Shown one piece after another: positions 12,926-30,036 of a stretch of DNA of 64,000 bases. Origin of the DNA: Candidatus Bathyarchaeota archaeon. Lineage in GTDB: Archaea; Thermoproteota; Bathyarchaeia; Bathyarchaeales; DTEX01. How positions within the stretch are numbered: position 1 is the stretch's first letter; each line of letters begins with the position of its first letter. Below the pieces are notes generated by a model. The model did not search any database. It was given only the letters and a program-made list of their open reading frames with translations, and was not told the DNA's origin. The position numbers were made by a program, and so were the translations under genes. The stretch is from NCBI GenBank assembly GCA_963714275.1, contig CAVQNT010000002.1, positions 672,001 to 736,000 of the forward strand, read 5' to 3'.

Positions 12926-13016
12926 AACACGGAAACATAGTCGAATAAACGAGATAAAGGTTCTTTCACGAATCCATAATCGTGATGAAAGAACCCCGAA
13001 AAGACATCTTTGGTGA

Positions 13017-13817
13017 TTATTTTATGTATTTTTTCAGAGCTGCCTTAACGTCTAAGCCTTCGTGGACGATGCCGCAGATCACGCGGACCATGCTTGCGGG
13101 GTCTTTGTGTTGAAAGACGTTTCTTCCGGTTGCCGCGCCAGCTCCTCCAGCTTTCACTGAATCGTAGACCATCTGGCAAAACTCCGCTTCTGTCTCGGTT
13201 TTCGGTCCGCCCGCCATAATAACAGGAACTGGGCAGCCCTTAACAACCTCTTTGAACGTTTCCAGACTGCCAGTGTAGTTGGTTTTCACGATGTCGGCTC
13301 CGAGCTCAGCGCCTATACGCGCGGCGTGCTTGACAACCTCAACGTCGTACTGGTTCTTAATCTTCTCTCCCCTTGGGTAGACCATGGCTAAAAGCGGCAT
13401 GCCCCAGTCTTCGCATATTTTGGTAACTTCGCCGAGAACCCGTAGCTGTGCAGGTTCAGTTTTCGAGCCGACGTTAATGTGTATCGATACAGCGTCAGCG
13501 CCTAACTTAATCGCCTCAAGAACGTCAGCAACCAACACTTTGTCGTTTGGGTCAGACCCTAGCGAGGTGCTTCCTGAAAGGTGCATTATGAGGCCAATGT
13601 CTTTGCCGTAGCCTCTGTATCCCGCTCTTATGATGCCTTTATGCAGAAGCACGGCGTTCGCTCCGCCTTCCGCTACCTTGTTCACGGCGGTTCTCATGTC
13701 CTCTAAGCCGCGGATTGGACCGTCGGTTAATCCGTGATCCATGGGAATGATGACGGTCCTTCCGGTGTCTCTTTTCATGATTCTGTCCAGTCTGATTCTT
13801 TTTCCGATTTCTGTCAC
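13017..13817 (-). CDS. aroA': 2-amino-3,7-dideoxy-D-threo-hept-6-ulosonate synthase (AroA', class I aldolase)
   Basis: [34 protein letters not shown]; divergent from the shikimate operon. Confidence 0.88.
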
Positions 13818-13945
13818 TTTTAATACACCTTAGTTGGATGGTTTGGTCTGAACTGCCCGTAAAATAAACGAGGTTAAGGCATAAAAGATTTTGCTTTAAT
13901 AAAAGTATATGCCATCTTGTTGTCAGTTTTTATAGATTCTTCTGG

Positions 13946-14109
13946 TCTGTTTTGTTCAACATCAGGTTTTGCTGTTTGAATAACATTTGCTGTTTTCGAG
14001 AGGCTATCTGATTTGTGTAACAATCAAGTTTTCCGTTTGCATAACAATATTAAAACTTGTGAAAAATGACCTGTTTTAAAGCATGTTTGTTTCGCGGTTT
14101 TGGAACAAT
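13946..14109 (+). repeat. Tandem copies of the 42-bp repeat (13946-13987, 14007-14048, degenerate ~14070-14109)
   Basis: TCTGTTTTGTTCAACATCAGGTTTTGCTGTTTGAATAACATT and TCTGATTTGTGTAACAATCAAGTTTTCCGTTTGCATAACAAT, period ~61-63 bp. Confidence 0.75.
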
Positions 14110-14236
14110 TTGACCAAATTTGTAGTTAGTTTCTAGGCTGAACATTTTTTATAAAACGGTCATGAAAGAGTGTTCTCTGTTTTCACAAGGCTTAAATACG
14201 ACTTAAAGGTAGAAACGTGGCGCGGAGAACCCGAAA

Positions 14237-14323
14237 ATGCACAGAAAATGTTCATTAAGGCTTCTCGGCACGATCCGTGCGTTTCGTTTCTTTAGCTGGT
14301 ATACTAAATATACCACATATTAG
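14237..14323 (+). CDS. Putative leader peptide of the lysC-aro operon, MHRKCSLRLLGTIRAFRFFSWYTKYTTY
   Basis: Translated by hand; GGAG at 14224-14227 upstream; 7 of the last 13 codons are F/W/Y; TATA-like CTTAAATA at 14191-14198. Confidence 0.55.
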   Translation: MHRKCSLRLLGTIRAFRFFSWYTKYTTY

Positions 14324-14326
14324 GCT

Positions 14327-14375
14327 GGAAGAGCCAACACATTCGCATTCCATCCGTCTCTGGTTCTTCCTTTTT
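14327..14375 (+). terminator. Hairpin plus U-tract in the lysC-aro leader (attenuator-like)
   Basis: GGAAGAGCCA (14327-36) pairs with TGGTTCTTCC (14361-70): 10 bp with one G-U, 24-nt loop, followed by TTTTT. Confidence 0.55.
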
Positions 14376-14388
14376 GGGGTTGTTGAAA

Positions 14389-15664
14389 ATGAGTGTAAAC
14401 AAAAATAGAAAGATGCTCGGTCGAATCGTCGTCAAGTTCGGCGGCACAAGCCTAGCTGACGGACTCGGCATTTTCCACGCCGCGGAATCCGTTATCAAAA
14501 AAGCGAAGCAGGGCGTTCAAGTAGTGGTTATTGTCTCAGCTATGGGAAAATCCACAGATGCTTTGATTGAAACGACTCGCCAAGCCTGCGAAGGCTCGGG
14601 TTCAAACGTGGACTTAGACGACGTCGTCGCAATGGGCGAACGCATTAGCGCTAGAATCTTTTCAGCCACGCTGAAGGCACAAGGAATATACAGTCATTAT
14701 CTGGACCCTTCACATCAAGACTGGCCAATCATTACGGACGACAATTTCGGGAACGCCAGCCCCATTTTGCCTGTTTGCGAGAAACTAATCAAACATCATG
14801 TTCAGCCATTGCTTGAGAAAGGTGTGACGGTTGTCGTTCCTGGCTTCATCGGCAGAACTGAAGACGGCAGAACAACGACGATGGGAAGGGGAGGAAGCGA
14901 CATAACGGCTTTTGTCTTGGCTCAAGCCTTGTCTGCAGACCTGATTTTGTTAGTCACTGACGTTCAGGGCATATTGACGGCTGACCCGAAAATCATCAAG
15001 AACCCTCGGAAGCTCAACGAAATATCAATCGACAACCTTATAGGGTTAGCTGACTCCGGAACCAAATTCATCCATAAAAAAGCCTTAAAGTACAAGACAC
15101 CCAAAATAGACGTAAAAGTCGTCAGCAACGCCTCCAGCGACTTGGATTTGGATGGAACCTTGATACGTGGAGGGTTCCCCCAAAACCTGCTTGTCGAATC
15201 GCACCCAGACTCAGCCGCAGCAATCACAATAGTGGGAAGGGGTCTTTCGGAATCACCTCAGACTCTTTTTAGGGTTTTCAGTGAGATTTCGAAGGCTGAC
15301 GCTCAGCTTTTGGGGATGTCTGTTAACCATAATTCCATAATTTTGTATCTGCCTTCGAAGGCTGCTGAAGGCATCCTAGAATCCATCCATTCGATCGTGG
15401 TCAGCGACGAAAAGGCTCAAGCTGATGGCGGTGAAAAAGGACCTTACTTTTGTTAGGGTTAAAGGTGTCGGGTTAGAGGACACTCCTGGAGTTGTAAGCA
15501 ACATAACTAAAGCCTTAAACTCTGAGGGTGTCAACATCTATGGGATTTTCACTATCACGTCAAGCGTTGTGATCTTCGTGGACTTTAAGGACGAGGAAAA
15601 AACGGTTCGTCTAATGAAAAAAACCTTGACAATGAATCACAATGGGCAATTTAAAGCCCTTTAA
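14389..15664 (+). CDS. lysC: Aspartate kinase with two ACT domains (frameshift near 15425)
   Basis: VVKFGGTS, VSAMG, MGRGGSD, TDVQGILTADPK. Confidence 0.93.
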
Positions 15665-15678
15665 AGGAGACGAAGAAG

Positions 15679-16774
15679 ATGCGGGAACTATGGGTTAAAA
15701 TCAATCCTAACTTATCCTTGAAGGGAAAGAAGATGGTTGTCGAAAAGACGGCTACGTTAGTTTCAGTCTTCATTGTTGAACCTCAGGACCTCGAATTAGT
15801 GAAAGAGTCGGGAGCGAAGACAACAGCAAGTTCGACTGAAAAAGGAGACATAATGATAGTAGAAGGTCCCAAAGAAATCGCCAAAGCTAGACAGACTGGA
15901 AAGAAAACGTGCATTCTTGTGACGGTGAAATCAAAAGCGGACGAAGCCAAAATCGAGGCTGCAGACTGAGGCTTCAACAGACTATGTAGCGGTTGAGTGC
16001 CCAGACTGGAAAGTCATTCCTTTAGAGAATCTCATCGCGAAGGTGCACGGGAAAACTAAGCTGCTGGCTGTTGCATTAAGCGTGCAAGAGGCAAAGACGG
16101 CGCTTGAGACTCTTGAGATAGGGGTTGACGGAATCGTGGCATACCAGACGAACGTAAATGAAATAATAAAAATCAGCGAGGTCATAAAGGAAACCAAGAC
16201 AAGAACGGATGAGGAGGAGTCAATCAAAACAATATCGCTTCTCCCTGCCAGAGTGACCGAAATTAAACCTCTTAGCTCAGGAGCTCGGGTATGCATAGAC
16301 ACATGCGATCTCATGAGGGAAGGCGAAGGCTTGCTCGTCGGATGCCAGTCTAACGGTCTTTTCCTCGTCGAAGCTGAGGTTCATGAAACACCGTTCGTTG
16401 CTCCTCGCCCGTTCAGAGTTAATGCTGGGTCAATCTCGCTTTATGTTCTTGCGCCGGACGGTAAAACCCGGTACCTTTCGGAGCTTAAAGCTGGAGACGA
16501 GGTGCTGATAATTGACCGAAACGGAAGACCGAGAACGACGAACATAGGTCGCGTAAAAATAGAGTGGCGACCGTTGCTGATGATTGAGGCTGAATGCCAA
16601 GGGAAAACTGTCAAAACAATATTGCAAAACGCTGAAACCATAAGAGTCGTCACGGAAAAAGGAAGCAAATCCGTTAAAGACATGAAAGCTGGCGACACAA
16701 TTATGGTGCGGTTTGAGGAGGGCGGCAGACACTTCGGAACCCTTGTTAAAGAAGAGAAAGTGATTGAAAGGTGA
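15679..16774 (+). CDS. aroB': 3-dehydroquinate synthase II (AroB'; frameshift near 15965)
   Basis: DWKVIPLENL, RVCIDTC, RPFRVNAG, YLSEL, LQNAETI, GRHFG. Confidence 0.92.
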
Positions 16775-17470
16775 AGCCTAGAATCTGTGTTCCGCTGCCG
16801 GTCGAAAGGCTCTCTGACCTTACATCAATGATTAAAAGAGCTGAGAACGCGGGGGCGGACTTAATCGAGATACGTTTAGACTACTTAAAAGACACCCAAA
16901 GTCAGCTGAGATGCCGTGAAAGAGGTAATCAGCCAAGTTTCAGTGCCCCTAATTGCTACAAACAGGGAGCACAGCCAAGGAGGAAAACGGGTCCAAAAAG
17001 AAGAACTGAGAGTTCAAACTTTGGTTAAAGCAGCTGAAATCGGTTTTCAGTACGTCGACATCGAATTGACCACGGCAAGTTTAGAAACAATTGTCAAAAA
17101 AATTCTGGACTGCAGTTCAAAACCCATCATCTCATTCCACGATTTTAAAGGCACGCCTTCAGACTCGGAAATGGAAAACATCGTAAATTCACAGATTAAG
17201 GCAGGAGCGTCCATCTGCAAGTTAGTCACAACAGCAAAAATCCTCGACGACAGCGTCAGATGCCTACTTTTCACTCAAAAAATGAGCAATGTCACGGACA
17301 TCGTTTGCTTCGCCATGGGCAGCCAAGGCGTCCTTTCAAGGATTCTTTCGCCTTTGTTCGGGGGATTTTTTACCTTCTCTGCGCTTGAGGTTGGCTTAGA
17401 GACTTCTTCGGGCCAAATCTCATTAACCGAGCTAAAAGAACTCTACAGGAAATTAGGTGTCAACGCATGA
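16771..17470 (+). CDS. aroD: Type I 3-dehydroquinate dehydratase (frameshifted)
   Basis: ADLIEIRLD, ISFHDF, FAMG..G..SR, GQI. Confidence 0.9.
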
Positions 17471-18348
17471 AGATCTCAGGGAAAACTAAGGTCTGCGGGT
17501 TGATAGGAGACCCAGTAGAGCACTCTTTAAGCCCTTGTTTTCAAAACGCTGCTTTTCAGAATCGAGGCTTAGACTTTGTTTACGTCGTTTTTAAAGTAGA
17601 AAAGGGAGGACTTGAAGCAGTCATCGCAGGAATGCGGAGCTTAGGGATATTCGGGTTAAATGTTACGATGCCTTACAAGATCGATGTTATCCAGTATCTC
17701 GACGAGTTAGACGAGACAGCGAAAAGCATCGGATCAGTCAACACCATTCTAAACAAGAAAGGAAAGCTAATTGGGTTCACGACGGATGGCAAAGGCGCCC
17801 TCGAAGCCCTAAAATACAATGGCGTAGAGCTGCCAGGAAAAAAAGTAGTGGTCTTAGGAGCTGGAGGTGCTTCCAGATCAGTTTCTTTGACTCTGGCTAA
17901 AGAGGTTAAGGAACTAGTGATCCTAAATAGGACTTTAGGGAAAGCCGAGGAACTCGTCAAAGAACTCAAGACGACTCAGGCTGTCAATGCATCCGTTAAA
18001 GCTGAAGAACTCAATCATCATAATGCTCAACAGGAGCTGCGGAACGCTGACATCCTCGTCAACGCAACATCCATGGGCATGCGTCCGCATGACAGGTTGA
18101 TGCCGGTGGATTCGTCGTTTCTACGGTCTGATTTGGTGGTTTTCGACCTCGTTTACGAACCTCTTGAGACAAGGCTGCTTGTGGAAGCAAAGAAAAAGGG
18201 AGCGACAACAATAGACGGACTGACCATGCTTGTGTTTCAAGGAGCCGTTTCCTTCGAAACTTGGACAGGCGTAAAGGCGCCAGTGGAAGTGATGATGGAG
18301 GCTGCTGCAGAGGAAATAGCTCAAAGGTCAACAAGTAAAAGGGGATAA
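17467..18348 (+). CDS. aroE: Shikimate dehydrogenase
   Basis: HSLSP, NVTMPYK, SVNT, GAGGAS, NATSMGM, MLVFQG. Confidence 0.95.
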   Translation: MKISGKTKVCGLIGDPVEHSLSPCFQNAAFQNRGLDFVYVVFKVEKGGLEAVIAGMRSLGIFGLNVTMPYKIDVIQYLDELDETAKSIGSVNTILNKKGKLIGFTTDGKGALEALKYNGVELPGKKVVVLGAGGASRSVSLTLAKEVKELVILNRTLGKAEELVKELKTTQAVNASVKAEELNHHNAQQELRNADILVNATSMGMRPHDRLMPVDSSFLRSDLVVFDLVYEPLETRLLVEAKKKGATTIDGLTMLVFQGAVSFETWTGVKAPVEVMMEAAAEEIAQRSTSKRG

Positions 18349-18352
18349 TAAT

Positions 18353-19224
18353 GTGGCTGACGTTGGAAAAGCGGTTGCGTATGGTGCTGTGACCGTCATA
18401 AACGCCATCTCATGCGGATTTGGTGCTGCCCTCAGCATCGACCTAAAAACTGAAGCCACCGTGAAACTGACTGACGAACCGGGTCGGATTAAGGGGCGAA
18501 TATTGTCAGACCTAGAGGAAAGCCCAGCTCTCATTGAGAAGACTGTTAGTCAAGTTTTTAGATGGTTCGATCTTGAACATGAACATGGCGCTTACGTGGA
18601 AACGCAATCGAACATTCCCATAGCACGCGGTCTAAAAAGCAGCAGCGTGGCAGCTAACGCAATAACGCTTGCATCACTAGCAGCATTGGGAAAAAAAGTT
18701 AGTGACCTAACTGCAGTCAACATCGGAGTGGACGCAGCCTTGGATGCTGGAGTTACAATTACAGGCGCATTTGACGATGCTTGCGCATCCTTTTTCGGAG
18801 GCATCGTAATCACCGACAATTTTAGAAGAAAAATTATGAAAAAGATTCAGCCTCCAGAAAAGCATCCAATTCTGATACATGCGCCCACAGCCAAAGCTTA
18901 CACGGCTGATTCGAACGTGCGGAAAATGAAAATCATATCTGAGGAGGCGAAGGCTCTTCACAGAATGGCTTTTCGCGGAGACTGGATGGCAGCCATGACG
19001 CTGAATGGATTATTATATTCAGTGGTTCTGGAATACGACCCAAACACAGCTATCGACGCACTGGAAGCAGGAGCTCAGCTGCAGGATTATCGGGAAAGGG
19101 ACCAGCAGTCGCTGCCGTTGTTCCACGAGAAAACGTCAACAGCGTAAGGGAAGCATGGAAAAAGTTTGGCGGCAACGTAATTGAGGCTAAGATTAACACT
19201 GAGAAAGCCCACAGATTATGGTGA
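18353..19224 (+). CDS. aroK: Archaeal GHMP-type shikimate kinase (frameshift near 19075)
   Basis: TVINAI, PIARGLKSSS, TGAFDDA, GLSGKGP in the shifted frame. Confidence 0.9.
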
Positions 19225-20525
19225 CCAATGTGACTGATCTCATCGTTAAACAAGTAGAAAGCCTAGACGGAACCGTTAAAGCGCCTCCTTCAAAGTCTTT
19301 CACGCACCGAGTCATAATCGCTACTTCGCTTTCGGAAGGTCGCTCGATAATCAAAAACGCGCTTTTCTGCGACGACACGTCGGCGACCCTTGAAGCATGC
19401 CGTATGCTGGGAGCCAGAATAGACCAGAATGAATATGGTGCCCTAAAAATTGATGGGCGTTCTAAGCCTTTAACGCCTGAAGATGTGATTGACTGCCGAG
19501 ACTCAGCTTCGACGATGCGGTTTCTCGCCCCAGTCTGCGCGTTAGCGGACGGCATATCGGTGTTAACGGGCGGAGAAAGCCTTCGCCTGAGACCCATGGA
19601 ACCTGTTTTGTCAACGTTGATGCAGCTAGGCGTTCTTTGTTATTCTGCGAGGGGAGACAATCATCCGCCATTGATTGTTTTCGGAGGAGGAATCACAGGT
19701 GGCGAAGTCGTTCTCAAAGGAGACGTAAGCTCACAGTTTACGTCAGGATTGCTTTTTGCATCGCCTTTGGGAGAGAAAGACACAGATATTATATTGTCGA
19801 CTCCTCTCGAGTCCAGACCTTACGTGGAAATGACGCTGGATGTTCTGAGAAAGCATGGGTTAAATTTTGAGGTCCAACGCGATTACGGGCAGTTCCACGT
19901 GCCTTGCCAGCAAACTTACAGTCCATCCGACCACGTTATAGAAGGCGACTATTCGTCAGCAGCGTTTCTTCTGGCAGCAGCAGCCATAACAAAATCGAAC
20001 GTAAAGTTAACGAACCTTCGAAGCGATTCAGTTCAAGGTGACCGTGCAATCGTCAAACTGCTCAGGGAAATGGGCGTTCAAGTCAAGGTGGGTAAAGGCT
20101 CCGTAGAAGTCCAAAACGTGAAAAACGAGTTAAGACCCATAGATGTGGACCTTAAAGACAACCCAGACTTAATCCCAGTGATGACTGTTGCTTCTTGTTT
20201 TGCAGACGGAAAATCCCTTATTCGCGGTACGAAGAGACTGCGACTTAAGGAGTCTGACCGTGAAACTGCTTTGCTCAGCGAGTTGATGAAGGTGGGCGCA
20301 AAAATCAAGTCCACCAAAGGCATAATACAGGTCGAAGGCACAAAAAATCTCAAAGGGGCACAGTTGGATTCGCACGGGGATCACAGGATAGCGATGGCTT
20401 GCGTTGTCGCTAGTTTAAGGGCTGCCGGAACAACAACCGTTAAGGGCATCGAATGCATAAATAAGTCGTACCCCGATTTTGTTAGAGACATCGTTTCCTT
20501 GGGAGCGGATGTTGTTGAGCGGTAA
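19218..20525 (+). CDS. aroA: EPSP synthase
   Basis: PPSKSFTHR, SSQF, LRLKESDR, DHRIAMA, KSYPDF. Confidence 0.96.
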   Translation: MVTNVTDLIVKQVESLDGTVKAPPSKSFTHRVIIATSLSEGRSIIKNALFCDDTSATLEACRMLGARIDQNEYGALKIDGRSKPLTPEDVIDCRDSASTMRFLAPVCALADGISVLTGGESLRLRPMEPVLSTLMQLGVLCYSARGDNHPPLIVFGGGITGGEVVLKGDVSSQFTSGLLFASPLGEKDTDIILSTPLESRPYVEMTLDVLRKHGLNFEVQRDYGQFHVPCQQTYSPSDHVIEGDYSSAAFLLAAAAITKSNVKLTNLRSDSVQGDRAIVKLLREMGVQVKVGKGSVEVQNVKNELRPIDVDLKDNPDLIPVMTVASCFADGKSLIRGTKRLRLKESDRETALLSELMKVGAKIKSTKGIIQVEGTKNLKGAQLDSHGDHRIAMACVVASLRAAGTTTVKGIECINKSYPDFVRDIVSLGADVVER

Positions 20526-21616
20526 CTCAATAAGCAAAATTCTGGTCGTCACATGCTTCGGAGAAAGCCACGGACCATGCGTCGGAGCAGTTGTAGATGG
20601 ATGTCCAGCGGGTTTACCCATAACTTCCGATGACATACAAACTGAGTTAAACAAGAGAAAATCTGGATTAACAGCAGTCAGTACGCCGAGGAGGGAAGAA
20701 GACCAAGTCGAGATTCTTTCAGGAGTCTTCAATGGGCATACTACCGGCGCACCGATCTGTCTGATTATTGGGAACCGGGATGTTGAACCGGAAGCCTACG
20801 AGCATATGAGACACAAACCTAGACCTGGACACGCTGATTACATAGCCTACATGAAATACGGCGGATTCAACGATTACAGAGGCGGAGGACGATTCTCCGG
20901 ACGTGTCACAGCAGCATACGTCGCGGCGGGAGCAATCGCCAAGAAACTGTTGACACAAATAAGCGTTGAAGTATTAGCGCACACGGTTCAAATCGGTAAG
21001 ATAAAAATCACAAAAAATGTTTCATACGACCAAATTCGCGAGAACGTTTATGATAATGCTGTCCGCTGTGCAGTGCTCGAATCCGCTGATCTCATGGAAA
21101 AAGAAATCCTGAAGGCTGCGGAAGAAGGGGATAGCCTTGGAGGTGTAGTTGAGGTTATTGCCTTAAACGTTCCAGCTGGACTGAGGTGAGCCAGTTTTTG
21201 ACTCGTTGGATTCGGACATTGCTAAGATGATGTTCAATATTCCAGCCGTTAAAGGCGTGGAGTTTGGCGCTGGTTTTCAGGTGGCTTCTCTAAAAGGTTC
21301 AGAAAACAACGATGCATATGTCATACGGAAAGGAAAGGTTACCTCTCCAACCAACAATGCAGGTGGGGTTCTGGGCGGACTCTCAACAGGCATGCCGATT
21401 GTCTTAAGGGTCGCGTTTAAGCCAACGTCCTCAATAGCGAAAAGGCAAAAAACTGTTGATCTGACAAAAATGAAGGAAACCGAGATTGAAGTTGCGGGTA
21501 GACATGATTTGTGCATCGTGCCGCGTGCTGTGCCAGTCGTGGAATCTTGCCTTGCTTTGGTTCTGGCGGATCATGCGCTCAGAGCTGGGAAGATACCTAA
21601 AGTAATTAAGGCTTAA
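20509..21616 (+). CDS. aroC: Chorismate synthase (frameshift near 21185)
   Basis: FGESHG, RPGHAD, GGGRFSGR, IPAVKGVEFG, FKPTSSI, GRHD. Confidence 0.95.
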
Positions 21617-21695: not shown

Positions 21696-22957
21696 ATGTC
21701 TCGTCTTTTAGGCGTGATCGCGGACGATTTCACAGGCGCATGCGACGCTGGCATCCAATTCAGAAAGTGTGGTCTTGAAACTGTTGTTTTGGCTGACGTT
21801 GAAAAAATACGCGAGTTTAAAGATGCTGCGGACATCATTGTTGTTGACACCGAAACCAGAAACCTTGACCCAAAGGCAGCTTACGATAAAGTGAATCAAA
21901 CGCTGAAAACTTTTCAAAAGATCGACGTTAAACTTGTCTATAAAAAAATCGATTCAACACTTAGGGGAAACTTCGGAGTTGAACTTGACGCTGTTCTGGA
22001 TGAACCGACAATCAGAGGCGTTTTAGTGGCTTCATCTTATCCGCAACAGGGCAGAACCGTCGTAAATGGGCAGGCTTACGTTAAAGGTGTCTCGCTTGAA
22101 AAAACGGAGTTTGCCTATGAATTATTGAGTCCAGTGAAAGATTCTCATGTTCAACCGCTGATAGAAAGGCAATCCAACCGAAAAATTGGGCTTTTAAACC
22201 TGTCCATGATTAGAGCTGGACCTGACGAATTGAGAGATCATCTAGAAAAGCTTTTGGAAAAAGGCAACAGAATAATCGTGGCTGACGCTGAAACCCAAGA
22301 AGACCTAGACAAGGTTGCGAAAGCTTCTATCGATCTGAACCTTTTGCCCTGTGGGTCAGCTGGGCTGGCTGAGAAAATCGCTTTGTCAATGACTTCTAAG
22401 AAGCGGTTGCTTGTAGTTTCAGGAAGCGTTAACAACGTGACGCTTGACCAGATTGAAACGGCAGAAAAAAGCTTGGGATTCCAATTGTTGAACCTGACCT
22501 CGACGAAATCTTGGTAAGCGACAAAAAACTGCGAGTTGCAGCAACCAATCTTGCTGATAAGGCTGTAACAGTCCTTCGGGAGACGGGAATCGTCACAGTT
22601 AGGCTTGCAAGCTCCAGAAATGTTATTCAAAAAACGTTAGATTTAGGCGAAAAGCTTGGTTTAAGCCGCATGCAAGTTGTTGAAAAACTTCTTTCTGTCT
22701 TAGGTTTGGCTGTAGGTGAAGTTTCTAACCATTGTAGGCTAAACAGTTTGGTCTTGATAGGAGGTGATTCTTCGGCGAAAGTAATAGATGCGATTGGGGC
22801 TGAAGGAATAAGGATTGAGGTTGAAATTTTTCCCAGCATATCGATGGGCAGAATCCATGGTGGTAAACATGAAGGGATGTTAGTTGTCACAAAGGCAGGC
22901 GGATTCGGTGACAAACAAACACTTGTAGATGTCATCAATTATTTAGAAAAAATTTAA
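21696..22957 (+). CDS. Four-carbon acid sugar kinase (DUF1537, DtnK/OtnK family; frameshifted)
   Basis: IADDFTGACD, YKKIDSTLRGN, GSAGLA, GGD, TKAGGFG. Confidence 0.88.
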
Positions 22958-27355: not shown

Positions 27356-28205
27356 TTAAAGGGCGTTGGATATTTCGGGGGCTTTGGGATATGAGCCGAG
27401 TACTTTCACGAAGACTGCTTTGCTTCTTAAATCTTCTAATGCTTCGCTGCAGCGTTTTTCGGTTCTGTGTCCTTCAAAATCCAGGTAGAAATTGTATTCC
27501 CATGGCTGCCGCTTTGTGGGTCTTGACTCAATTTTTGTCAGGTTAATGCCTCTTCCTGCGAACTCTCCTAAGATCTGGTAGAGTGCGCCAGGAATGTGTT
27601 TCGCTGAAAAGATGACAGAGGTTTTGTCATTGCCTGAAGGTACGGCGTCATTTTTTGACAGCACAAAAAACCGTGTGAGATTGTTTGTGGTGTCCGAAAT
27701 GTTCCTTGCGACGATTTTCATTTCATAAATTCCTACGGCTTTCTCTCCTGCTATGGCTCCCGAATTCAGCATCCGTTGCTCTTTTATCATTTTGACGCTT
27801 CCGGCTGTGTCGTATGTTGAGATAATTTCGCAGTTTAGGCTTTCAAGGAAGCTTCGACATTGAGCTAAGGCTTGAGGGTGCGAGTATATGATTTTGATGT
27901 CCTCAAGTTTCGTTTCGTTGTTAGCGATGAGGCAATGGTCAATTTTCAGGACTATTTCGCCGCAGACTTTGTGGTCATACATCAAGAACAAGTCGTAAAC
28001 TTGGTTGACGCTTCCCTCTATGGAGTTTTCAATGGGGACAACGCCGAACTCGGTTTTATCAGTCTCAACATTCTTGAAAACATCCGAAAATCCTTTACAT
28101 GGAACAGACTTTAACTGAACGACCGAAGAACGCGTAGACTGCGCTTTCGCTGTATGCCCCTGGTTCGCCTTGGTATGCGATTCTTTTTTGTTTTTGGGCA
28201 CCCAT
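27356..28205 (-). CDS. pheA: Prephenate dehydratase (frameshift near 28115)
   Basis: True N-terminus MGAQKQKRIAYQGEPGAYSE; PIENSIEG, SHPQALAQC, TRF, ESRP. Confidence 0.93.
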
Positions 28206-28423
28206 GGATTTCAGAATCCCTAAGTTTTTAATGTGTCGAGTTTAAGGCTTTTTCCTCTTTATTCTCGTAGCATTAATATCTTTTGGTTTCTTAATTGCTG
28301 TTTTATTCCGTTAGAAACAACATTGGGAGAGTTAGTGAAAATATCCGAAAATCGTAATTTTTTTCCGAAACATTTAAAAATAATCCTTGTATGCTTATTA
28401 CGGACAATTGAAGGTGTAACCGT

Positions 28424-30036
28424 TTGCAGAAAGTTCCGGTCGCGATGGCTACTCAGCACGCTGATTCGGCGACTAAACTTGTTCCGGTAAGGGATGAGGT
28501 TGATGAGGCTGTTCTCTCGTTCGAGCAGGAGGGGTTAGACTGCGATGAATATCTTGTCGATTACATGGGTAAGCTTACGCCTTACCATCAGATTGGGCAG
28601 ATTATTCAGAGGATTCGTGAGAAGACGAAGTTTGTGCCTGGAGTTGACGTGTTTGTTACGCCGCGGATGGTTAGCTCTTTCGAGGAGGATCCTTTCAGGC
28701 AGCTGATGACAACGAGCTGCGATTATCGAAGGCATAAAGTACTGTGTGGACAATTATGGGCAACAGGGAATAACGGAGGTCATTCAAGCAGCGGTTACGA
28801 CAACCGAGGAGTTGAGAAACTGCAAAATAAGATGTGAGGACCTTCTCAGGGTGTTTGGGAAACACCTTAAGATGAAGACTGAAGACATGTCGATAAGAAT
28901 TGTACCCCTTTTTGGCGGACTTGCTGAACAACTCTCCATGGAGCAGGTTCTATCCATCTATGTCAAGGACGTGAGCGCAGAAGGATATGCGAGAGTCTTC
29001 ATCGGAAAGTCTGAAGCTGCACTTCTTTATGGGCACATGGCTTCGGTGCTTTCTTGTAAGGTTGCTATTGCTGGATGCAAAAAAACTGAGGATACGCATG
29101 ACATTAAGATTTACCCAATTCTTGGTTGTGGAGCATTGCCCTTCAGGGGGCACATGACGCTTGAGAACGCGGATAACTTCCTCAAGGAGTATCAGGGAAC
29201 GCGGACTTACACTATTCAGTCAGGTTTAAGGTATGACCATGGCGTTGAAAAAACAAGAGCTTTAATCGAGAAGATCAAGGAGGCTGTTAACCGTCCGTCT
29301 CCCGAGTACGATGAAGGGCAGCTTCGAGAAATGGAGAGGATGATCTTCATCTTCGCAAAGAATTACTTGCTTGAGCTTTCCGAGATTGCTGAGAAAATTT
29401 CCGTGATTGCGGATTACATTCCTGACCAGCGGGAACGGTTGCTGAACGTTGAAGAAGTTGCTTATTATCGTGAACTGAGGAATGTTGAAAGTATCCTGCG
29501 GTTGTGTCCAGACAAGGAAGTGAAAAGAAGTATCATGGGATATGCTTACACGGCTTTCCATAAGCCTCCCAGATGGGTGAGGTTCATAGCCTCATCATAC
29601 ACTTGCGGTTTGCCGCCTGAGTTCATCGGGTTGGGGACAGCACTTTCGGAGATTAAGGAGACGATGGGAGAAAAGGCGGTTGAGAGGCTTCTCGGTGAGA
29701 TATATCCCTCATTGGAGGTTGATGTTAAGTTCGCCTCAAGATTCCTCGATAAGAACCTCGACGGCAACATTCTCTTAACTGAAAGATTGCTGAAAAGCAT
29801 AGGTGAGTTAGAGAACTTCATAAGCCTTGAAGAACCTGACAACGGCTACCTTATCCTCAGCAGACTGGCGTCAGCATACATTAAGGACATGCTTACAGGA
29901 AAGGCTTCGAAGGGAAGACGGTTGCACTATCATGATCGAGAAGTCCACGGTCGCCGAGTACCTAAACGGCACCAGCAGGGATAACCTGAGCAAGATGGTT
30001 CTTGACCTTGGGAGGATTAGGAAGTCGCTGGCTTAA
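28424..30036 (+). CDS. ppcA: Archaeal phosphoenolpyruvate carboxylase (two indels)
   Basis: PVAMATQH.DSA, RVFIGKSE, GCGALPFRGH, TIQSGLRYD, GLPPEFIG, RKSLA C-terminus. Confidence 0.85.

Follow-up and report, generated by a model that had tools for sequence, protein, structure and literature searches.

The lysC-aroB'DEKAC operon of Bathyarchaeia, in which an aspartate kinase gene is followed by genes of the shikimate pathway, is probably controlled by ribosome-mediated sensing of Phe and Tyr codon supply. It would then be the first archaeal leader-peptide attenuator to be described, ancient and with an architecture of its own, in which the Shine-Dalgarno (SD) sequence of a short leader open reading frame (ORF) would be gated by the first aromatic codons of that ORF and one hairpin would lie between the leader stop codon and the next SD. 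The element lies in a 64,000-nucleotide (nt) stretch of a Candidatus Bathyarchaeota archaeon genome (assembly GCA_963714275.1, contig CAVQNT010000002.1, positions 672,001 to 736,000; 'the window' below means this whole stretch), where a 28-codon ORF with an aromatic-rich end stands upstream of lysC. We lean towards reading this ORF as a leader whose translation gauges how much charged Phe- and Tyr-tRNA is available and so sets the expression of the operon, and the sensing part of this reading is well supported.

An initial annotation of the region had listed the 28-codon ORF, a GGAG motif and a TATA-like box, a 10-base-pair (bp) hairpin starting 3 nt past the stop codon, and a run of five U residues after it, and all of these are present as described. 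A small correction concerns the start of lysC, which had been placed 13 nt after the U run and was measured at 14 nt (T5 in the DNA ends at 14375, and the ATG is at 14390).

The leader ORF in Bathyarchaeia

A short ORF is found upstream of lysC at every orthologous locus that we examined (39 + 29, from many families and orders), and at 54 of these 68 loci it ends in a run rich in Phe and Tyr. The loci come from three sets. The first comprises the lysC orthologues of relatives (13 loci, and the window's own as the 14th), and all 14 have an ORF of 24-31 codons with a Shine-Dalgarno sequence and an aromatic-rich end. The second set, from a species-representative collection, holds 26 Bathyarchaeia loci, one of them a duplicate (L031 = L006), and 22 of the 26 carry an aromatic-rich leader ORF. 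For the third set, an even sample of 151 genomes of the class yielded 45 with a lysC orthologue at E <= 1e-80, and 29 upstream regions were analysed, 25 of them from other orders; an aromatic-rich leader ORF is present in 18 of the 29, and 14 of these are from other orders. Excluded from the third set were G047, whose match lies at a contig start, L148, with 72 nt only, and 13 further matches from the same order, while G012, G014 and G040 were already present as L015, L010 and L013.

Across the class the leader ORFs measure 12-45 codons, and about half of the last ~13 codons specify Phe or Tyr. Apart from this richness, the leader peptides of different families share nothing. Family-specific ends, each written up to the stop codon, are ..RFFSxY..YTT[YF], ..SF[DE]YGFYYYGYFP, ..FYSFGYFFYN and ..PFFGRFGYFGY; further ends, mutually unrelated, are ..NPYYYYYYYCFF, ..RFFDFFYYYFYFE and ..FHYPYFYFFYCYYFFEG. 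The element appears old enough to span orders of the class while its sequence turned over completely. A covariance model (R1) of the leaders of family f10 (type B below; 16 leaders) matches only that family, in 10 of the 151 genomes, and is too sequence-specific for measuring spread, which was therefore assessed from the regions upstream of lysC orthologues. At the archaeal loci outside the Bathyarchaeia (L057, L058, L060, L063, L064 and L068) no such ORF was seen, a result of little weight because their kinases are distant (at most 38% identity).

The aromatic run as a coding signal

The aromatic share of the last 13 codons is 46% in the leaders of the window's family and its neighbours (type A; 11 leaders) and 63% in type B, as against 9.1% in the long ORFs of the genome. 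This enrichment depends on the reading frame: the last 13 codons of 37 leaders (L007 and L052 were left out of this test) hold 256 aromatic residues in frame 0 and only 39 and 63 in the other two frames. Likewise, the maximum aromatic count in any 13-codon window is 4-10 at the 39 orthologous loci of the first two sets (at least 6 in 32 of them), compared with 2-4 at 15 paralogous aspartate-kinase loci of the same genomes and 0-6 on the antisense strand. By itself, the window's ORF, whose last 13 codons include seven for Phe, Trp or Tyr and four for Thr or Lys (three of them Thr), is not significant, as 50 of the 55,406 small ORFs in the genome have at least 7 aromatics in their last 13 codons; it is conservation across loci that makes the leader more than chance.

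Differences between close relatives fall at the third codon position in 76 cases, against 47 and 51 at the first two, and the wobble changes include TTT/TTC, TAT/TAC and all four ACN codons. Together with these wobble changes, the many non-synonymous differences among the leaders (79, against 42 synonymous) are what would be expected if only codon classes matter. The same figures count against an alternative in which the leader encodes a functional peptide, or a nascent peptide that senses the free amino acid, and codon supply is not what is read. Such a peptide would account for the recurring motifs FFS, YTT[YF] and SF[DE]Y, and a second leader type (MGDxLFGDGVY..) does look conserved as a peptide. 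However, the families have Phe/Tyr richness alone in common, and the recurring motifs coincide with RNA pairing partners. Nine leader peptides gave no Pfam family at E <= 10, and six, the window's included, were absent from the protein collection when looked up exactly. We regard a functional peptide as extremely improbable.

As to which residues would be sensed, the initial annotation had counted Phe, Trp and Tyr codons together with those for Thr and Lys. Phe and Tyr stand, whereas Trp is no conserved part of the signal and conservation of the Thr codons (YTT[YF]) is confined to the window's family. The same annotation had cautioned that the assembly contains many indels, and for the leader this concern has been removed. 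Contigs from four independent DNA runs were aligned to 14100-15750; they span 14211-14332 with zero indels in the leader ORF, and one contig is identical to the window. The strain differences in these contigs include a synonymous TTT>TTC change plus R>K and W>Y, the latter two also found in a related genome. The sequencing runs found to contain this stretch were all DNA runs, with no RNA run among them.

A hairpin between the leader stop codon and lysC

The hairpin beyond the leader (P2) was recovered in both the minimum free energy (MFE) and the centroid structures of the window, at -13.9 kcal/mol, so that it withstood the folding check suggested for it. Its placement was tabulated for 54 loci with a Phe/Tyr-rich leader; the four loci of type E and 10 of the third set's 11 low-aromatic loci were set aside. 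P2 begins 0-5 nt past the stop codon in all 54, its folding free energy is -12 kcal/mol or lower in 51, and in 52 the distance from its end to an SD-like motif is 0-10 nt (mode 5).

The arm sequences are unrelated between families, with the pairing retained. In type A, 94.5% of P2 cells are paired, a figure that falls to 43-66% once the partner is shifted, and five of the ten pairs have changed on both sides; the observed values were reached by 0-1 of 500 shuffles. In type B the arms (GCCCAGAAC/GTTCTGGGC) are almost invariant and 96.5% paired, and they vary by one-sided G-U changes only. Across the 54 loci, what is invariant is the stop-hairpin-SD geometry and not a hairpin-plus-U terminator. 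The expectation that the upstream ORF, its aromatic enrichment and the stop-adjacent hairpin would recur in relatives was borne out across the class, compensatory hairpin changes included. The single match of a sigma-70/terminator scanner was a 5-bp stem within the ORF, no better than chance; P2 falls outside the scanner's 8-nt loop limit.

The near-invariance of the type-B arms and 5' motif, and the presence of GTAGAAACG beside the type-A promoter, might also be read as signs of an untranslated RNA or DNA element (a protein-binding site, or something riboswitch-like) in which the ORF is incidental. An element of this kind sits badly with the start codon, the Shine-Dalgarno sequence, the frame-specific aromatics and the position of the hairpin at the stop codon, all of which are kept across families unrelated in sequence, and Rfam gave no match at E <= 10 over window positions 13000-15500 on both strands. 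Of the readings that we considered, it is the least probable.

Ribosome position and alternative folds

We modelled the footprint of a ribosome as a 30-nt mask placed at each A-site position of 31 leaders. At most loci the probability of P2 is ~0.7-1.0 wherever the A site lies, unless it is within the last 2-4 codons or on the stop codon, where the value falls to about zero. An alternative fold that displaces the hairpin from further upstream was seen only at L001-L003, L005, L006 and L015; among the folds there are the helix between FFS codons and 5' arm noted in the initial annotation, and one in which the SD region binds the 3' arm. In the window's genus (L001-L003) the modelled hairpin probability falls with the ribosome at codons -16 to -7. 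The footprint modelling of the 31 loci revealed no conserved antiterminator, and in these models direct occlusion by a ribosome at the ORF end is the only interaction common to all loci. The competing helices of the initial annotation are only partly upheld: they are present in the sequence, but AGAAACG (14211-14217) probably lies upstream of the inferred transcription start, and the displacing fold is confined to the window's genus and a few neighbours.

A second helix (P1) joins the start of the leader to the opening of its aromatic run. In type A, RNAalifold pairs GGAGAR (the leader Shine-Dalgarno) with the FF codons UUUCUU, both sides being invariant and without covariation. The corresponding partners in type B are the 5' end GGUUCGAAGC and GCUUCGAM, the S-F-D/E codons with which the aromatic run begins, and this helix is 93% paired. 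The MFE folds of 26 leaders from many families pair the leader-start region (-14..+2) with the beginning of the aromatic run in 13. The P1 strands are family-specific, for example GAAGGAGUC/GACUUCUUC and AGAAGGGCCA/UGGCUGCUUCU, and the helix is less certain in the window, because the MFE partner there sits further upstream in the ORF. Type-B leaders (L034-L056) also have, ~12 nt ahead of the leader ATG, an invariant AGGTTCGAAGC at the predicted transcript 5' end; it contains GGTTCGAA, a typical tRNA T-arm sequence, and is read here as one P1 strand.

Proposed mechanism and points against it

In the mechanism that we propose, plentiful Phe and Tyr would let the leader be read fast, P1 and P2 would close, and closed P2, as the OFF state, would hold down expression of the operon. 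A shortage of either amino acid would make ribosomes stall within the aromatic run. One stalled on the first aromatic codons would keep P1 open, so that more ribosomes could load, and one on the last 2-4 codons would cover the 5' arm of P2, leaving P2 open and raising operon expression. Closed P2 could act in more than one way. In the window it might enhance termination at the adjoining T5; alternatively, it might hinder ribosome entry at the abutting lysC site, with the lost translation of lysC lowering operon transcription by polarity. Across the class the output would be exerted on lysC initiation, either sterically or by a hand-over of ribosomes that finish the leader. Since nothing but the stop-hairpin-SD geometry is constant throughout the class, we favour this step, at the level of translation, as the ancestral output, to which some lineages, the window's included, would have added T-run termination as a further layer.

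Several observations weigh against this mechanism. First, a fast ribosome on the stop codon would also cover the 5' arm, so that a simple kinetic model predicts read-through at plentiful amino acids. Second, the lysC Shine-Dalgarno sequence lies outside the hairpin (~5 nt downstream), and the modelled unpaired fraction of the lysC site averages 0.50 with the 5' arm free and 0.52 with it masked. Third, the stability of the 205-nt leader as a whole is unremarkable (z = -1.04), and the type-B arms, near-invariant and without double changes, could reflect a sequence-specific partner. Fourth, a run of at least four T residues (T4+) directly follows the hairpin at only 16 of the 54 loci and is absent from 38, and in the genome a hairpin plus T4 is found after 6 of 1185 gene ends, against 12 and 5 in the controls. 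Finally, 14 of the 68 loci (4 in the second set and 10 of the 29 in the third) have a different, less aromatic upstream ORF, and in 4 of those 14 the aromatic run is not at the ORF end.

This different, conserved ORF (MGDxLFGDGVY.., MGGHLYWH.., ..GYIFGGHIYGGHYWL..) occurs at six loci of family f26 (L134, L136, L137, L140, L142 and L145), four of family f35 (L146, L147, L149 and L150) and four of the second set (L043, L045, L052 and L055). The MGDxLFGDGVY.. type looks conserved as a peptide, to judge from its sequence, and may have another mode of action. The aromatic codons of these ORFs are fewer and interleaved with Gly, Asp and His, and there are sometimes ~10 extra codons ahead of the stop. 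The single f15 locus has a leader with just four aromatic residues (..SSFYTYY, then stop).

When the 5' arm was masked at 33 loci, the lysC site became less accessible in 3 and more accessible in 7. Since accessibility is unchanged overall, any translational block would have to be steric. Sequestration of the lysC Shine-Dalgarno by the 3' arm when the 5' arm is covered was also considered, and was rejected for the same lack of change.

The timing problem would disappear if the hairpin were a positive element. A stall upstream would then let P2 form and so protect or activate the lysC message, and a fast ribosome at the stop codon would prevent this, much as for segment 2:3 of classical leaders. 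The stop codon here abuts the 5' arm, as it abuts segment 2 in those leaders, and at most loci the hairpin has no T-run behind it. However, the freed 3' arm has no conserved partner that we could find, and masking the 5' arm does not reduce lysC-site accessibility. Furthermore, the hairpin forms without any ribosome, so the default would be ON. A positive hairpin is, in our judgement, very improbable.

T-runs and termination

The initial annotation had likened the region to a bacterial attenuator. In the strict form of that model, the hairpin and U5 are a transcription terminator, whose formation is prevented by a ribosome on the last Tyr/Thr codons or by an antiterminator of FFS codons and 5' arm. 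The core of the comparison, a leader with an aromatic run and a hairpin after it, has held; the T-run and the antiterminator are not conserved. In favour of the strict form, T5 directly follows the hairpin in the window, the 16 loci with such a run include family f14 (12-13-bp stems, then T4-T5), and the fall in hairpin probability at codons -16 to -7 in L001-L003 is of the kind required. In addition, according to the accessible part of one report, oligo-T suffices for termination by archaeal RNA polymerase, and a preceding hairpin can enhance it (PMC13675443). Against it, most loci have no T-run after the hairpin, and even the congeneric L003 has TTCTC in place of T5; the alternative fold is not conserved beyond a few type-A loci; and a hairpin with a T-run is no commoner at gene ends than in controls. 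A ribosome at the stop codon would, moreover, block the hairpin also at plentiful amino acids. We think strict bacterial-type attenuation unlikely.

Within the genome, runs of at least five T residues (T5+) are enriched 10-30 nt past the ends of 1185 long ORFs (348, against 178 in shuffles). This enrichment, combined with the rarity of hairpin plus T4, fits archaeal termination as described in the accessible part of PMC13675443. The window's T5 sits 48-52 nt past the leader stop, and T-runs in the type-B hairpin loops, where present, are at the same position as ordinary terminators.

These T-runs bear on a further alternative, in which termination depends on a factor, as at tna. A stalled ribosome would hide the U-rich run or U-tracts from aCPSF1/FttA, and after fast release termination would take place before lysC. 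This would give the right regulatory direction without the timing problem, and Phe and Tyr codons are necessarily U-rich. A T4+ run lies inside the hairpin region at 33 of the 54 loci, 15-25 nt past the stop codon, a distance at which T5+ is enriched after ordinary genes of the genome. Binding of aCPSF1 to U-tracts, with an affinity that increases with tract number, is reported in the accessible part of PMC8716108. On the other hand, the window has neither a U4 tract in its aromatic run nor a T-run in its hairpin loop, at 16 of the 54 loci T4+ runs are missing both from the hairpin and from the region behind it, and the invariant hairpin would have no clear role. We consider factor-dependent termination improbable, and prefer the reading in which a ribosome at the ORF end opens P2.

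Relation to known systems and significance

To our knowledge, leader-peptide attenuation, the textbook case of gene control by coupled transcription and translation, has so far been treated as a bacterial invention. The Bathyarchaeia element resembles the bacterial trp, pheA, his, thr, leu and ilv leaders in that a short leader, predicted to be translated, precedes a biosynthetic operon and carries end-product codons almost to its stop, in that the following helices depend on ribosome position, and in that the 5' part of the leader can pair with the regulatory codons. It differs from them in its archaeal host and in having one post-stop hairpin instead of a 2:3 / 3:4 pair. Unlike in those leaders, no conserved antiterminator was found here, the U-tract is unconserved, the hairpin abuts the next Shine-Dalgarno sequence, and there is no match to an Rfam leader. 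Translational attenuation at erm and cat is similar in that a ribosome stalled in a short leader ORF opens a hairpin beside the ribosome-binding site of the main gene; there, however, ribosomes stall because of a drug and a specific nascent peptide and the hairpin includes the Shine-Dalgarno sequence, whereas here hungry Phe/Tyr codons would cause the stall and the Shine-Dalgarno sequence is ~5 nt outside.

Two other bacterial systems share parts of this geometry. In E. coli pyrBI and pyrE, an upstream frame ends at or just before the terminator hairpin, the ribosome blocks folding, and the speed of the polymerase (UTP) is sensed via coupling. In the element described here it would be ribosome speed that is sensed, and the same physics would give the opposite sign unless control is post-transcriptional. 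In the tna operon, a ribosome held at the end of the TnaC leader hides RNA needed by a termination factor, free Trp being sensed via the nascent peptide and the factor being Rho. By analogy, the factor here would be aCPSF1/FttA, and sensing would be via codon supply. Closer in one respect are the polycysteine leaderless short ORFs of mycobacteria (bioRxiv 10.1101/834739), which, as presented in the accessible part of that report, are upstream ORFs rich in one amino acid and act as amino-acid-responsive operon attenuators outside the classical proteobacterial scheme; unlike the present leaders, they are bacterial, Cys-sensing and leaderless.

A full-text literature search found no case of archaeal leader-peptide attenuation, though papers beyond its reach may exist, and the accessible text of a review of archaeal transcription-translation coupling contains no word starting 'attenuat' (PMC8116511). 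An example found throughout an archaeal class would show that archaea, too, use their ribosomes and RNA in this manner to read amino-acid supply. It would offer a natural probe of transcription-translation coupling, of oligo-T and aCPSF1/FttA termination and of re-initiation in archaea, and would provide a compact Phe/Tyr-responsive switch for archaeal genetics. For the physiology of this uncultured, globally abundant sediment lineage, it would mean that de novo aromatic synthesis is regulated and that a separate aspartate kinase is dedicated to it.

Layout of the leader region in the window

The features of the region are collected in Table 1. We infer that 14185-14198 functions as the promoter. 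TATA positions T11, T12, A15, T16 and A17 are unchanged in 14 of 14 aligned leaders, whereas the alternative promoter near 14300, which the initial annotation had allowed for, is unconserved in relatives. The position of the start site follows from the usual TATA centre at ~-26. The GTAGAAACG motif is kept across genera of the window's family while its flanks vary; possibly it serves as a promoter-proximal element, or as an operator bound by a transcription factor that acts on this promoter.

The 16S rRNA of the genome has the 3' end ..GGATCACCTCCT, which complements the leader GGAG and makes both GGAG and the GGGGT ahead of lysC, each 9 nt from its ATG, plausible Shine-Dalgarno sites; CGGAGA is unchanged in 11 of 11 type-A leaders. 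The T5 tract is a possible oligo-T termination signal. The minus strand of the intergenic region, towards the divergent neighbour, has no aromatic-rich ORF.

Table 1. Features of the leader region and its neighbours (positions in the window)
Feature	Position	Strand	Remarks
DeoC/LacD-family aldolase, divergent neighbour	13017-13817	-	Pfam PF01791, E 7.8e-72
TATA box CTTAAATA	14191-14198	+	After CACAAGG; predicted archaeal promoter 14185-14198
GTAGAAACG motif	14209-14217	+	Between TATA box and predicted start site; kept in type-A leaders
Predicted transcript 5' end and short 5' untranslated region	14219-14236	+	Carries leader Shine-Dalgarno GGAG
Leader Shine-Dalgarno GGAG	14224-14227	+	9 nt ahead of leader ATG
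Leader ORF, 28 codons and stop	14237-14323	+	Encodes MHRKCSLRLLGTIRAFRFFSWYTKYTTY, then stop
Putative sensor run, last 13 codons	14282-14320	+	F R F F S W Y T K Y T T Y
Hairpin P2	14327-14370	+	Arms 14327-14336/14361-14370, 10 bp, one G-U, 24-nt loop
T5 tract	14371-14375	+	Also spacer between P2 and lysC Shine-Dalgarno
lysC ribosome-binding site	14376-14392	+	GGGGT 14376-14380, ATG 14390
Operon downstream of leader	14390-21616	+	Pfam

The operon and its metabolic context

Pfam assigns the genes of the operon to an aspartate kinase with an ACT domain (lysC), dehydroquinate synthase II (DHQS II, aroB'), dehydroquinase I, shikimate dehydrogenase, a GHMP-type kinase, EPSP synthase and chorismate synthase. 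In the window lysC is split at 15423/15424 into a piece of 355 amino acids and an ACT piece of 79 amino acids. This frameshift is an assembly error, because all four short-read runs are without one base at 15423/15424. The genes for DHQS II, dehydroquinase and chorismate synthase are similarly split, and these splits are probably errors of the same kind. Directly after chorismate synthase, at 21696-22957, are two ORFs with SBD_N and NBD_C domains (four-carbon acid sugar kinases), which are possibly one gene split by an indel and may belong to the same operon.

The divergent aldolase is likely, from its family and its context beside DHQS II, to be aroA' (ADH synthase), which we take to be the first step of the archaeal aspartate-semialdehyde route to dehydroquinate. 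The operon would then presumably make chorismate from aspartate semialdehyde, in keeping with what is established about the aroA'/aroB' route. The genome also encodes prephenate dehydratase (window 27356-28205, minus strand) as well as prephenate dehydrogenase (C6:465750-466058). Anthranilate synthase (chorismate-binding domain) was not found in the genome assembly, which is 91% complete, and the organism may, on gene content, be without Trp synthesis; this agrees with leaders that are rich in Phe and Tyr and poor in Trp.

Sister leaders were sought among the genome's small ORFs of 12-45 codons, by scanning for an amino-acid-rich window and a hairpin, and only the lysC leader had a strong stem plus a T-run. 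Two candidates were rejected: C3:3946-4050, which precedes an unrelated gene, and C7:126650, which has no gene after it. Upstream of pheA (window 28206-28460, minus strand) there is no F-rich ORF.

A second, distant aspartate kinase is encoded elsewhere in the genome (C6:461708-462667, 37% identity). Its gene lies ~3 kb from that of prephenate dehydrogenase, on the same strand, and in relatives the ORF just 5' of this aspartate-kinase paralogue resembles the C-terminal end of the preceding gene.

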